Positions 15,275-19,159 are shown, numbered from the stretch's first letter. The stretch is DNA of 32,000 nucleotides from Candidatus Electrothrix sp. GW3-4 (GCF_037902255.1 NZ_CP147990.1:3390001-3422000), one strand, 5' to 3'. The notes: generated by a model not told the origin, from the sequence alone. Made by a program: numbers and translations.

Positions 15275-16489
15275 ATGAAGTTGGTTGAAATTAGCTGCGA
15301 AGGATACAAACCTTTCAAAACGCATCAGGAATTAATCTTGCGCCCTCTTACCGTAGTATTTGGCAAGAACAGCAGTGGAAAAACGGTTCTGCTTCGCTTG
15401 GCAAGGTTGCTACTTCGCTGTCTTTCATCAAGGGTAGAACGTAACTTCCCATTAAAAGTTGATGAACTTTCTTTTGGAGCATCATTTCGTGACCTCCTTT
15501 ATCAAGGCTTTCCACATGGAAAAATCTCTTTTTCTATCGGATTGGAATATGATCAGCAACGTTTTGAGATGGAGGCTAGTATTCAAAACATTTCCAATCT
15601 CTCAGGAAAAGATGAACAGATTGTATCTCGGTTGAAATTATCCTCACCTGCTGTTGAACTGGAGTGGGACGGGACAAGCCACAAGCCAGCTCGCTACAAA
15701 GATATTGGAGAAGTGACCTTTAATGGACTTCTTCCAGAGTCAGGCACTGATATATCTTTTTCTTTGAATAAAATTGACAAGCTGCGCCGTACTGTACGAA
15801 ATTTTGAAGATGGAATAAACCACCTTGGTGCTCAACGATCTGCTATTTCTTCTATTTACGAAAAAAAAGCCTCACAGCCCATAGGGATTGACGGCAGCGG
15901 AGCGATAAGTTTGCTTGCTGAAAATTCCGAACTGCTGGAAGCTGTTGGCGAATGGTATGTGGAGAATATGGAAGGCTGGCGACTTTCAATGGATCAGGCA
16001 GGAAGTGCGTACAAGTGCACTCTTCAACGGGGGGCTGTAACCGTCAACCTTGCTGAAGCAGGTCAAGGTATGCAACAGGCACTACCGGTTGTTGTTCTGC
16101 AACTTATGCATCGTTTCAATAACCAGGTGCCTTTTCTGGATTTAGTAGAAGAACCCGAGCTACATCTGCATCCGGCAGCTCATGCACCTCTTGCAGATCT
16201 GTTTCTTCAATCAGCAAAAGCTGGATTCGGTCAAGTCATAGTTGAAACACATTCAGAAAACTTTTTACTACGAATTAGAAGGCGTATCGCAGAAGGGGAG
16301 ACATCTCCTGAATCCGTTGCTATTTATTGGGTTGAAGATTTGGAGGACGGTTCCAGCAGAATTAGGCCAATCAAAATTTTACCGGATGGCAGTGTTGATT
16401 ACTGGCCGCCCGGTGTTTTCTCGGAAGGATACCAAGAAGTTCGTGCTATGAGCAAAGCGGCCCGCAGCAAAAAGGAAGGATTGGCATGA
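15275..16489 (+). CDS. ABC/AAA-type ATPase with DUF3696-like C-terminal domain (AAA_15/AAA_21 class)
   Basis: 404-aa ORF; RBS AGAGGA lies 5 nt before the ATG.
- Walker A: GKNSSGKT (residues 30-37).
- Signature-like: AEAGQGMQQ.
- Walker B/D-loop: FLDLVEEPELHLHP (287-300).
- H-loop: VETHS.
- C-terminal tail: ...IYWVE....IRPIKILPDGSVDYWPPGVF. Confidence 0.8.
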   Translation: MKLVEISCEGYKPFKTHQELILRPLTVVFGKNSSGKTVLLRLARLLLRCLSSRVERNFPLKVDELSFGASFRDLLYQGFPHGKISFSIGLEYDQQRFEMEASIQNISNLSGKDEQIVSRLKLSSPAVELEWDGTSHKPARYKDIGEVTFNGLLPESGTDISFSLNKIDKLRRTVRNFEDGINHLGAQRSAISSIYEKKASQPIGIDGSGAISLLAENSELLEAVGEWYVENMEGWRLSMDQAGSAYKCTLQRGAVTVNLAEAGQGMQQALPVVVLQLMHRFNNQVPFLDLVEEPELHLHPAAHAPLADLFLQSAKAGFGQVIVETHSENFLLRIRRRIAEGETSPESVAIYWVEDLEDGSSRIRPIKILPDGSVDYWPPGVFSEGYQEVRAMSKAARSKKEGLA

Positions 16490-17499
16490 AATTTTGTTTT
16501 GCCAAGGATGCTGTTAATGATGTGCAGGAATACAGGCCATTGGACAATATTCTCAATGCTGCTCTGGATGGCTGGCATGAGTGGGAAATTGATGATCCAG
16601 AGATGCTGGAGCAAAGCGATTGGCTTCGGAACAGTCGGCAATATGTAAAAGAATTTTTTGAGAAATCTGTTCAAAGGGGAGCCTATTCAACGTCGAGTTC
16701 TCTGCACAAACGCAGTTGGCTTGTCACCAATCAGGGAAATGCTCTTGATGCCTTGACTCCGCAGGCCGCAGCTCTCTATTTTACAACGCCACTGCGTATA
16801 TGCGTCGAGAATGAATTTACAGACAGGTTATTTGTTGAGACCGTGCTGTTTTTTCTGGCTTCTCAGGAATTGAAAGATTTTCTCAGTCAGTTTGAACAGG
16901 GCCAAAAGAAGCCTGTTGAATATCTTCATGGGGGTGGCATAGATGAGCTTTGCAAGCTCATTGAACGGCGTGTTGATGAATCTGCTGCGCAAGGCATCCG
17001 ATTCCGAGCGGTGGTTATTACAGACAGCGACACGCGTTTTCCTAGTGACGATGGTGACATGCAGAAAAAGCCCTTGAAACTTGAAAGATTTTGCCAGGAA
17101 AATAACATTCCATGTGTAATTCTGAGGAAACGGACAATTGAAAATTATATCCCGGATGAAGTGCTGCGGGGGTGGGCTGATGGATTAACTTACCAGAAGA
17201 TTAAGGGGTTTGTAAACGCAGTTGGTAGGTTAAATTATGAACAACGGAATCATATGAGAATGAAGAAAGCATTCCCGGAACGGCTTCAAACTACAGAAGA
17301 AAAATTTCTGTACAGTTCAGTACCAAGTCAGGACAAAGAGGCTTTGAGCGAGAAAGATTTGGCCCCGGACCAGTCTCGCCGAGATTTGATTTATCTCCTT
17401 GATACCCACAAACAATATCTTACAGCAGATAGCCTGCGTAGACGGGATGGACAGGAAGAACTTGATCGCCTTGTCACTTTGATTGCTGAGGAGCTTTGA
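16486..17499 (+). CDS. Toprim-like (DUF4435/OLD-AriB-like) protein, putative nuclease
   Basis: 337-aa ORF with an ATGA overlap with the ATPase gene. It has a Toprim-type acidic pattern: LRICVENEFTDRLFVE (E108), HGGG, AVVITDSDTRF (D180/D182) and RKRTIENYIP. The assignment is by motif recognition only. Confidence 0.6.
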   Translation: MKFCFAKDAVNDVQEYRPLDNILNAALDGWHEWEIDDPEMLEQSDWLRNSRQYVKEFFEKSVQRGAYSTSSSLHKRSWLVTNQGNALDALTPQAAALYFTTPLRICVENEFTDRLFVETVLFFLASQELKDFLSQFEQGQKKPVEYLHGGGIDELCKLIERRVDESAAQGIRFRAVVITDSDTRFPSDDGDMQKKPLKLERFCQENNIPCVILRKRTIENYIPDEVLRGWADGLTYQKIKGFVNAVGRLNYEQRNHMRMKKAFPERLQTTEEKFLYSSVPSQDKEALSEKDLAPDQSRRDLIYLLDTHKQYLTADSLRRRDGQEELDRLVTLIAEEL

Positions 17500-17506
17500 A
17501 AGAACA

Positions 17507-19159
17507 ATGAATAATAATCAGACTGTTAAGCCGGAAGTATGGCAAGTCGTTGAGTTAGTACGGGATGCCGCAGGAGGTAAATTGCGCATTCCTGATTTTC
17601 AGCGTCCTTTTGTCTGGGACCGCAATCGGATGCTTGATCTGCTTGACAGTATTAGAAGACGTTACCCCATCGGCAGTCTCCTCGTTTGGGAAACAGAAGA
17701 ACAGGTAAGTTCCAAAGGCAACATCGGCCTTATTAAAATTAATAAAGAAAACAAAGGCAGTACTTCTCTGGTATTGGATGGTCATCAACGCATATCCACA
17801 TTAACCGGGGCGTTAATTGAGCCATCGGAAGATTCGATTTTTAAAGATGATCCTGATCCTGGCCGTTGGGAAATATGGTTTAATGCCAAAGAGGAACTAT
17901 TTGAACACCTTAGAGATAACGATAAACCGGAAGTATGGCATTTCCCTATGCGCAAGTTAATTGATACGTTTTCTTTTTTGGGTGAATGTCAAAGAATGTT
18001 GGATAATGGAGGAAAAGAGGGACCGCATTTTGTACAGAAAACGCAAGAGCTTCTGCGGAGCTTTGTAGACCAGCAGATTCCCGTTGTCAAAATAAGAAAT
18101 ACTGACTTATCTCAGGCCGTCAATATCTTCGCCCGTCTGAACTCTACAGGAAAAAAAATCAGCGCGGACGAAATGGCAGCGGCGATTACCTACAAAGAAG
18201 GCAGAAGCTCTTTAGCTAATTATATTGACGATTTGACAGAGATACTTACAGGATGGGGCCTTGGTAAAACAAACAGAACCATTATTTTGCGCGCTATCCT
18301 AGCTTGCATGGGGGATGATATTTACAGTACGAAATGGGATCGCTCAGAAAAAGATAAAGATTTCTACGACAAACTGGACAAAGGTATTGATTCAGTTAAG
18401 AATGCTATAGAACAGGCTGCAAAATTTCTTCATGAACAACTTGGTGTCAAGCATGACCGATTACTGCCTTATGCACAACAGCTGGTTGTTCTCGCAGCTT
18501 TTTTTTATGGTTGTAAAAAACCGACTCAGCAGCAGCAGGATTTTTTGCATCGTTGGTTTTGGGTCTCTTCCTTTACCGGGTGGTTCGCGTCCGGCAATCC
18601 TTCACGAGTGTCCGCTTTGGTTAAGGAAATGCGTGATGTAATATCCAAGGACCCAGTTCCACAATCCCTTGAAAACATGCGTATGGATGAACCGGCAGAA
18701 CCTTTTCCAAAATATTTTGACACGCGCAGTGCTAGAACAAGAACATGGCTCCTTATGATGCTTGAGCTGCAGCCATGCAATATGGAAGGAGTTCCAGTTA
18801 AAGAGTCTTGGAATTCGGTTGGTGAATATGGTCTCAGCTATATTGCGACAGGAGTAAAGGATAAGAATCTTCGTTCAAGTCCGGCTAATCGTATTTTGCG
18901 GCTTGATCCAAAAAATCGCGCTCAAGCCATGAATTGGCTCGTTCATTTGAATTCTGAAACTAACAGGAAGATACTCACTAGTCATGGTATTCCAGCAGAC
19001 AAACTGCACTTATTACAGGAGGGGAAACGTGATAAATTCCTTCAGGAACGACGAGATTATCTTGTTAATCTTGAAAGAGAATTTATGGAGAAAAAAAGGG
19101 TTACTCTGCCTTTGGACTCTACCCCTAAACCTGCTCCGATTGATACGGATACAGAATAG
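17507..19159 (+). CDS. DUF262 (GmrSD N-terminal / ParB-like NTPase) domain protein without recognisable DUF1524/HNH domain
   Basis: The ATG at 17507 lies 7 nt after the upstream stop, preceded by GAGGAG; the ORF-track TTG start at 17483 is the alternative. Motifs are RIPDFQRPFVWD, YPIGSLLVWE, LDGHQRISTL and IFARLNSTGKKIS. I saw no (D/E)H..P / HNH-like motif in the C-terminal ~300 aa. Confidence 0.8.
   Translation: MNNNQTVKPEVWQVVELVRDAAGGKLRIPDFQRPFVWDRNRMLDLLDSIRRRYPIGSLLVWETEEQVSSKGNIGLIKINKENKGSTSLVLDGHQRISTLTGALIEPSEDSIFKDDPDPGRWEIWFNAKEELFEHLRDNDKPEVWHFPMRKLIDTFSFLGECQRMLDNGGKEGPHFVQKTQELLRSFVDQQIPVVKIRNTDLSQAVNIFARLNSTGKKISADEMAAAITYKEGRSSLANYIDDLTEILTGWGLGKTNRTIILRAILACMGDDIYSTKWDRSEKDKDFYDKLDKGIDSVKNAIEQAAKFLHEQLGVKHDRLLPYAQQLVVLAAFFYGCKKPTQQQQDFLHRWFWVSSFTGWFASGNPSRVSALVKEMRDVISKDPVPQSLENMRMDEPAEPFPKYFDTRSARTRTWLLMMLELQPCNMEGVPVKESWNSVGEYGLSYIATGVKDKNLRSSPANRILRLDPKNRAQAMNWLVHLNSETNRKILTSHGIPADKLHLLQEGKRDKFLQERRDYLVNLEREFMEKKRVTLPLDSTPKPAPIDTDTE

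Follow-up and report, generated by a model that had tools for sequence, protein, structure and literature searches.

Menshen, PARIS, Septu and Gabija share one arrangement, in which an ATP-binding cassette (ABC) ATPase is paired with a nuclease that stands under its control. In PARIS the ABC ATPase releases a Toprim effector, and this effector cleaves tRNA. Here we describe a three-gene cassette of related composition in a cable bacterium, Candidatus Electrothrix sp. GW3-4. It occupies positions 15275-19159 of a 32,000-nucleotide stretch of the genome (GCF_037902255.1, NZ_CP147990.1:3390001-3422000; hereafter the window, with positions counted from its first letter) and encodes an ABC ATPase, a predicted Toprim-fold nuclease and a DUF262 protein. 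Judged by profile matches, the locus belongs to PDC-M55, a computational candidate family that had been catalogued before.

The system with which the cassette invites most comparison is Menshen (NsnABC). Its NsnA joins a ParB-type DUF262 domain to the helical ParBDB domain, and its NsnC has an inactive-PIN domain at the N-terminus and an effector domain at the C-terminus. In models of Menshen the DUF3696 tails form a clamp on the effector's N-terminal domain. The effectors are predicted to be mostly RNases, some NsnC proteins possess Toprim effector domains (DUF4276/RloB), and the ATPase NsnB deviates from canonical ABC motifs, with an Arg for the Q-loop Gln, a GxG signature and a Glu at the position of the Walker-B Asp (Li et al., PMC12065111). 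Menshen loci were mined by the succession of NsnA and then NsnB (Li et al., PMC12065111). Among DUF262 proteins, GmrSD and SspE sense modified DNA (PMC12065111), and the helical middle region of BrxU has been treated as homologous to ParBDB (Li et al., PMC12065111). The PDC families, in turn, are 145 untested candidates that were collected by 'guilt-by-embedding', each family being defined by one or more copies located inside BREX, DISARM or type I restriction–modification loci (Payne et al., bioRxiv 10.1101/2024.01.29.577857).

A PDC-M55 cassette in Candidatus Electrothrix

The cassette consists of three open reading frames (ORFs), all on the plus strand. The first (g1, PDC-M55A; 15275-16489) codes for a soluble OLD-type ABC ATPase of 404 amino acids that resembles NsnB and has a DUF3696 C-terminal tail. 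The second (g2, PDC-M55B; 16486-17499) codes for the predicted Toprim-fold nuclease of 337 amino acids, and the third (g3, PDC-M55C; 17507-19159) for a DUF262 protein of 550 amino acids when counted from its ATG; a TTG at 17483 is a possible alternative start. The stop codon of g1 and the start codon of g2 overlap in an ATGA at 16486-16489, indicative of translational coupling, and a spacer of 7 nucleotides (17500-17506) separates g2 from g3. In PADLOC the PDC-M55 A, B and C models are the best hits of the three proteins, in matching gene order and over nearly the whole of each protein, and judged against these full-length family models all three genes are intact.

A sequence-only reading of the window had proposed a coupled defence operon at this site, and much of it stands. 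The three coupled ORFs with their ATGA overlap and 7-nucleotide gap lie at the coordinates it gave, all the motifs it quoted were recovered at the residues it named, and its candidate defence role agrees with the PADLOC run, which returns PDC-M55A, B and C, a phage-defence candidate. The similarity to the Menshen domain inventory, which it had raised as a caveat, also proved correct. Its estimate of novelty was too high, because PADLOC already lists the family as PDC-M55.

The ATPase

The ATPase encoded by g1 contains the motifs GKNSSGKT (residues 30-37), EEPELHLHP (292-300), ETHS (324-327) and DYWPPGVF (375-382). Pfam assigns it to AAA_15 (1e-20) and AAA_21 (7e-17) and detects DUF3696 at 22.7 bits, narrowly over its cutoff (22 bits), in keeping with the ABC/AAA ATPase with a DUF3696-like tail that had been recognised earlier. 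In PADLOC the best match is PDC-M55A over the full length (1.4e-96), and second comes the Menshen NsnB model (1.1e-41, 141.8 bits, residues 4-388). The PARIS AriA model follows well behind (1.8e-22, 78.7 bits). The likeness to PARIS that had been suggested is present in g1, but NsnB matches more strongly, and by these scores the closest validated relative of g1 is Menshen NsnB and not PARIS AriA.

Conservation was assessed across 31 syntenic g1 homologues. The Walker A lysine K36 and the H-loop histidine H326 are invariant, as are three departures from the canonical ABC motifs: R188 at the position where the Q-loop Gln is expected, a GxG signature (G263/G265, both glycines invariant) instead of SGG, and E292 at the position of the Walker-B Asp. 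In the C-terminal tail G372, W377 and F382 are likewise invariant, and G380 is found in 30 of the 31 homologues.

The Toprim-like protein

The g2 protein begins with an N-terminal alpha/beta region (residues ~1-100), continues with a Toprim core (103-223) and ends in a helical C-terminal region (224-337). Its characteristic motifs are VENE (107-110), HGGG (148-151), ITDSD (178-182) and IENYIP (218-223). PADLOC matches it best, and over nearly its full length, to PDC-M55B (1.4e-28). Neither Pfam nor NCBIfam contains a family that matches it, and profiles built from 12 and from 147 sequences found nothing significant among the PDB sequences. Relatives are plentiful: a word-indexed search retrieved 12, and an exhaustive profile search retrieved 1,517 cluster representatives at E<=1e-3, 225 of them at E<=1e-30; the best 150 of the 1,517 are mostly ~320 amino acids long, and the family extends over many phyla. 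A set of 147 relatives, with identities down to ~25%, served for the analysis of conservation, and every one of them matches the PDC-M55B model.

A Toprim domain is defined by a four-stranded alpha/beta core with a Glu just after the first beta strand and a DxD after the third. The AlphaFold2 (AF2) model of g2 (predicted local distance difference test score, pLDDT, 87; predicted template modelling score, pTM, 0.86) has a core of four beta-alpha units, and DSSP places a strand at 103-107 that is directly followed by E108 and a further strand at 175-180 that carries D180-S-D182, so that both the Glu after beta1 and the DxD after beta3 are in place. G150 and G151 follow the second strand, and K215, R216, E219, N220 and Y221 follow the fourth; like E108, D180 and D182, E219 occupies a canonical Toprim position. 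These are also the residues upon which conservation is focused: E108, D113 and Y221 are invariant across the 147 relatives, and G150, G151, D180, D182, K215, R216, E219, N220 and P223 are each conserved in at least 90% of them. By modelled fold, motif position and conservation, g2 is probably a Toprim protein, and we predict from the model that it acts as a Toprim nuclease.

The nearest structure belongs to an OLD protein. A Foldseek search of the PDB placed the C-terminal Toprim part of OLD from Burkholderia (6nk8) at the top with a probability of 0.99, followed by retron Eco2 and GajA. An hhalign comparison of the g2 profile with the single sequence of P2 Old stays below significance (E 0.3), and its register pairs VENE with VEGK, GGG with GKG and DSD with DCD. 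Matches to families of known systems are weak and scattered among the 147 relatives: the two best HEC-01B models match 8 and 5 of them, Mad4 3, AriB 3 and AriAB 2, and in Pfam Toprim_3 and DUF4276 match one each. None of the NsnC models matches g2 or any of the 147 relatives. The Toprim-like nature of g2 had been anticipated correctly from its motifs; the kinship with DUF4435 proposed alongside it was not upheld. Pfam DUF4435 matches neither g2 at E<=1 nor the relatives at E<=0.1, and the AriB matches in 3 of the 147 are weak (best 5e-3), on which grounds membership of DUF4435/AriB was rejected. We place g2 in a family of its own, of predicted OLD-type Toprim proteins, outside DUF4435.

The DUF262 protein

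The third protein displays the motifs IPDFQRPFVW (28-37) and DGHQR (91-95). It is composed of a ParB-type DUF262 domain (~18-226), a BrxU-like helical middle region that extends to ~380 and a conserved C-terminal domain (~385-550). Pfam detects GmrSD_N (DUF262) at residues 18-226 (1e-27), and the defining residues of the DUF262 motifs QRxxxW (32-37), DGxQR (91-95) and FxxxN (208-212) are invariant in 30 relatives. The PADLOC matches are PDC-M55C (6.1e-125), the BrxU-like HEC-05 (1.7e-27, 94 bits) and NsnA (2e-12, 45 bits), the last of which covers the DUF262 part alone. By sequence BrxU (7p9k) matches residues 17-327 (1.8e-14). By fold, a search with the AF2 model of g3 (pLDDT 87) aligns it to BrxU over ~614 alignment columns (E 2.8e-12), SspE comes next, and the matches to ParB and Noc are weak. 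The C-terminal ~300 residues had previously been set aside as a region of unknown function; up to residue ~327 this no longer holds by sequence, and by fold the whole protein aligns with BrxU. The family comprises at least 522 clusters, and the best 120 are nearly all ~560 amino acids long with PF03235 as their sole Pfam domain.

The earlier assignment of g3 as a DUF262 protein without a recognisable DUF1524 nuclease was likewise confirmed. DUF1524 was detected neither in g3 itself nor in the precomputed Pfam annotation of its best 120 relatives nor in the C-terminal segments of 17 aligned relatives searched at E<=10, and a profile of the C-terminal region has no match among PDB sequences. The last ~175 residues are conserved nonetheless, with FDMRSARxR (404-412), GxGY (442-445), SPANR (458-462), W477, S492-H493, R515 and E523. 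In HEC-06 the HNH motif of DUF1524 is EHICP, and an alignment of it with that of BrxU was given by Payne et al. (bioRxiv 10.1101/2024.01.29.577857). On our reading of the sequences, EHICP would correspond to G-Y-I in the g3 family and 'GNL' to A-N-R; at the position read as the HNH histidine, 21 of 30 sequences have Tyr, 5 Arg, 2 His and 1 Asn. From this motif pattern and the full-length fold alignment with BrxU we infer that g3 may be a BrxU/GmrSD-like protein whose last ~170 residues form a catalytically dead nuclease-type domain. The nuclease function appears to have passed from g3 to g2.

Conservation and distribution of the cassette

Synteny was examined in a sample of 35 loci, obtained by a degenerate-pattern scan with one genome per species. 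In all 30 loci that contain the three genes, their order and strand are g1-g2-g3. The identities to the window copy correlate between the three genes (Spearman 0.76-0.91), most closely for g1 and g3 (rho 0.91). The presence of g3 in every complete locus and its divergence in step with g1 argue that it is integral to the module. Hosts are found among the Gamma-, Alpha- and Deltaproteobacteria, Magnetococcales and Myxococcota, among the Acidobacteriota, Spirochaetia, Rhodothermales, Bacteroidota, Brocadiaceae and Nitrospira, and among the Actinomycetota, including Oerskovia, Micromonospora and Amycolatopsis. The neighbours of the cassette vary between all the genomes examined and are mostly housekeeping genes, with transposases in several flanks. 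Two copies, from Leclercia and Paracoccus, reside on plasmids beside recombinase or integrase genes, and no phage genome contains a g2 homologue or the cassette.

Several individual loci deserve mention. In a Bacteroidetes metagenome-assembled genome the module is immediately preceded by a gene for a type IIG restriction-methyltransferase (PADLOC E=0; L034:4884-7943), and elsewhere a degraded module remnant, made up of a g1 fragment and a partial g2, abuts a full-length Wadjet JetC gene on its upstream side (L017:9560-14723). In a member of the Vicinamibacterales ~1.4 kb are inserted between the g2 and g3 homologues (L027:10946-12106), splitting the operon; the insert holds an ORF of 386 amino acids that looks transposase-like by sequence. 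A Bacillota locus (L032:8198-11403) has g1 and g2 homologues without a DUF262 gene, and the next gene encodes a SIR2/CobB-like protein of 247 amino acids; this could be a two-gene variant, a system with a different third component, or a cassette beside a housekeeping sirtuin. In Amycolatopsis (L038:378-5365) a cluster on the opposite strand upstream of the module, with an AAA ATPase, DUF2997, a radical-SAM-like protein (Fer4_12) and HHH_3, may represent another accessory system.

Genomic setting in the window

The module has a GC content of 0.436, compared with 0.56 in its left and 0.53 in its right flank, and adjoins an IS110-family insertion sequence (IS; 13531-15159, plus strand) with imperfect inverted repeats of 17 nucleotides at 13531-13547 and 15143-15159. 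The transposase of this element is present as two ORFs (13655-14380 and 14470-15132; Pfam DEDD_Tnp_IS110 5.6e-19 and Transposase_20 1.2e-12). The element is context and not a part of the system; together with the base composition it matches the AT-rich insertion next to an IS that the sequence-only reading had described. The low GC content, the adjoining IS, the varying neighbours and the plasmid copies indicate that the cassette is a self-contained, horizontally mobile accessory unit, a pattern that is compatible with defence and is no proof of it.

No convincing direct or inverted repeats that bound the low-GC stretch emerged from a repeat search. One inverted-repeat pair (I8, 13009/19285) does bound it, with arms that fall inside the flanking genes, and was dismissed as probably a chance occurrence. 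Neither a tRNA gene nor an Rfam family was found near the boundaries of the stretch, and consensus scans for promoters and terminators gave results at chance level only. Sequences resembling Shine-Dalgarno elements precede all three genes: GAGG at 15266-15269 (g1), GGAAGGA at 16474-16480 (g2) and GAGGAG at 17488-17493 (g3), the last of which falls within the 3' end of g2. Between g3 and the convergent TonB-receptor gene a hairpin at 19215-19259, with arms of 16 nucleotides that are 94% complementary and a loop of 13 nucleotides, is a possible bidirectional terminator; it was not called by the consensus terminator scan. In the deposited annotation g2 bears the locus tag WGN25_15195, whose product is 100% identical to g2 and has 319 amino acids as the result of a later start call.

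The three genes that adjoin the module are each broken into two ORFs, namely those for an SBP_bac_5 solute-binding protein (11359-13088, minus strand), the IS110 transposase (13655-15132, plus strand) and the TonB-dependent receptor (19271-21417, minus strand), while the module genes are intact. The splits could reflect real pseudogenes or indel errors of a long-read assembly. Further downstream, a second dip in GC content (~0.46-0.49) coincides with a gene at 21709-23355 for a 548-amino-acid protein with Chlam_PMP-type repeats, similar to polymorphic outer-membrane proteins.

Proposed mechanism and alternative explanations

We consider it probable that the cassette, as a PDC-M55 member, is a permuted and Toprim-armed relative of Menshen, in which a DUF262 sensor, an ATPase switch and a Toprim nuclease effector are divided among three proteins. 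The NsnB-like ATPase g1 would oligomerise and hold g2 by means of its DUF3696 tails. The effector g2, a Toprim nuclease of the OLD/AriB/Mad4/HEC-01B kind, would be inactive while bound. The sensor g3, an NTP-dependent DUF262 protein of BrxU/GmrSD type without an HNH nuclease of its own, would recognise the DNA of an invader, possibly in modified form. Recognition would change the nucleotide state of the ATPase and thereby release or activate g2, which would then cleave nucleic acid, either the DNA of the invader or the tRNA or other RNA of the host. The defence role of the module, its trigger and the substrate of its nuclease are inferred.

A number of observations weigh against this interpretation. 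Our literature search returned no publication that names PDC-M55, no account of the family's domains or mechanism and no experimental test of such an architecture, and the record of comparable PDC and HEC candidates is mixed, with protection by four of eight in one study and by neither of two in another. Known defence genes are few among the 107 ORFs immediately flanking the sampled cassettes, so that this sample shows a weak enrichment in defence islands. The Toprim assignment of g2 lacks a significant sequence match to the Pfam Toprim families or to PDB chains, and the Foldseek match to 6nk8 reaches an E-value of only 0.012 with TM-scores of 0.30 and 0.47 (0.47 on the target). At the catalytic Walker-B position, which follows E292, 27 of the 31 g1 homologues have His or Gln, and many members of the family may for this reason bind ATP without fast turnover and work as slow or non-hydrolysing switches; the window copy has Glu here (residues 292-293, encoded at 16150-16155 on the plus strand). 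Lastly, the contacts between g1, g2 and g3 upon which the mechanism depends are assumed from the analogous systems.

Beside an abortive outcome in which RNA is the target, the possibility that the cassette attacks invader DNA directly, in the manner of restriction, has to be taken seriously. In its full form this alternative would make the cassette a three-protein enzyme akin to type IV restriction, in which g3 recognises modified DNA and recruits g1 and g2 to cut it directly, without abortive infection or an RNA target. g3 does score higher against the BrxU-type HEC-05 (94 bits) than against NsnA (45 bits) and aligns with BrxU over its full length, g2 finds its best structural counterparts in the DNA nucleases OLD and GajA, and modified DNA is what the DUF262 proteins GmrSD and SspE sense. 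Yet the nearest validated relative of g1 is NsnB, the effectors of Menshen are mostly predicted RNases, and in PARIS the ATPase lets go of a Toprim effector that cleaves tRNA; we regard this explanation as rather unlikely. At the opposite end, the locus could be a canonical Menshen system that annotation thresholds have overlooked, as the matches of g1 to NsnB (1e-41) and of g3 to NsnA (2e-12), the DUF3696 tail and the existence of NsnC proteins with Toprim effector domains might suggest. This we regard as improbable, given the ATPase-effector-DUF262 order in 30 of 30 loci, the failure of the NsnC models to match either g2 or its 147 relatives, the ~170 additional residues of g3 relative to NsnA together with its higher scores on BrxU-type models, and the PDC-M55 models, which score far above the Nsn models for each protein.

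The PARIS-type alternative casts the ATPase as a decoy that detects a phage anti-restriction protein and frees a Toprim toxin, with g3 as an accessory or independent gene. The release of a Toprim effector by its ATPase has a precedent in PARIS, AriA models match g1 at 1.8e-22, and AriB or AriAB models weakly match 5 of the 147 g2 relatives; on the other hand g3 is missing from none of the complete loci and has diverged in parallel with g1, AriA is the weaker match to g1 compared with NsnB, and g2 lacks a detectable DUF4435, so that we think this explanation very improbable. A role outside immunity would have the cassette serve the maintenance of a mobile element, competition or addiction, or would make it an accessory of DNA repair or partition assembled from ParB-like and SMC-like parts. 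ParB-type and ABC/SMC-type proteins do serve in chromosome and plasmid segregation, and the cassette keeps company with IS elements, recombinases and plasmids in mostly housekeeping neighbourhoods. We attach little likelihood to such a role: the closest characterised relatives of all three components belong to validated defence systems, the cassette occurs in no phage genome, and the conserved nuclease active site of g2 is ill-suited to partition. The permuted Menshen relative remains our preferred explanation. A bolder form of it, in which PDC-M55 constitutes a distinct and widespread three-component immunity that leads from a BrxU/GmrSD-type, HNH-less sensor of modified DNA through an NsnB-like ATPase to a separate OLD-type Toprim nuclease, is a tentative proposition that we hold to be possible, if doubtful.

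Significance

The locus is new as a member only; the family is listed, close analogues of all its parts occur in known systems, and the advance is incremental. What it documents is a horizontally acquired candidate defence cassette in the Electrothrix cable bacteria. If functional, the cassette would offer an approachable example of an ABC-ATPase switch that couples a nucleic-acid sensor to a nuclease, a question that is still open for Menshen, and the published Menshen census would have missed a large permuted branch because it required NsnA followed by NsnB. Were PDC-M55 indeed a distinct three-component system, it would link type IV restriction, Menshen and the PARIS/Gabija-type systems both in evolution and in mechanism, and permuted Menshen-like systems would exist that published surveys are unable to detect. 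The PDC-M55 cassette is a reasonable target for experiments and not a new discovery.

Comparison with known systems

The combination of an OLD-type ABC ATPase with a Toprim E...DxD centre is common to the cassette and to PARIS, OLD, Gabija GajA, HEC-01 and Mad3/Mad4 of MADS. In OLD and GajA the ATPase and the nuclease are parts of one protein, whereas here they are separate proteins. PARIS and its relatives operate without an obligatory third DUF262 gene, which the present module has; PARIS in particular is set apart by the lack of a detectable DUF4435 in g2 and by the weaker match of AriA, compared with NsnB, to g1. BrxU, GmrSD and SspE, on the other hand, are single-chain type IV restriction enzymes of DUF262-DUF1524 composition. 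g3 shares with them the DUF262 motifs and the helical middle region and resembles BrxU more than it does Menshen NsnA, while the DUF1524/HNH part that these enzymes require was not detected in it.

Menshen (NsnABC; Millman 2022; Li et al. NAR 2025, PMC12065111) distributes the same roles over its proteins, with a DUF262 protein, an OLD-type ABC ATPase with DUF3696 and a nuclease-type protein. In both systems the nuclease-type gene directly follows that of the ATPase, and the unusual motif substitutions of NsnB recur in g1. The two differ in that the Menshen order A-B-C appears here in cyclically permuted form as B-C-A (ATPase, Toprim protein, DUF262 protein), that the effector g2 is a predicted OLD-type Toprim protein which the NsnC models do not recognise, and that g3, a protein of BrxU length with 550 amino acids, is ~170 longer than NsnA (385 positions in the PADLOC profile) and has an additional conserved C-terminal domain. 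The succession of NsnA and NsnB is absent from the window locus and from all 30 complete loci, and because of this gene order the locus is not filed as Menshen. Relative to the validated systems, 'Menshen-like' describes it best, with a permuted gene order and a predicted Toprim protein as its effector.

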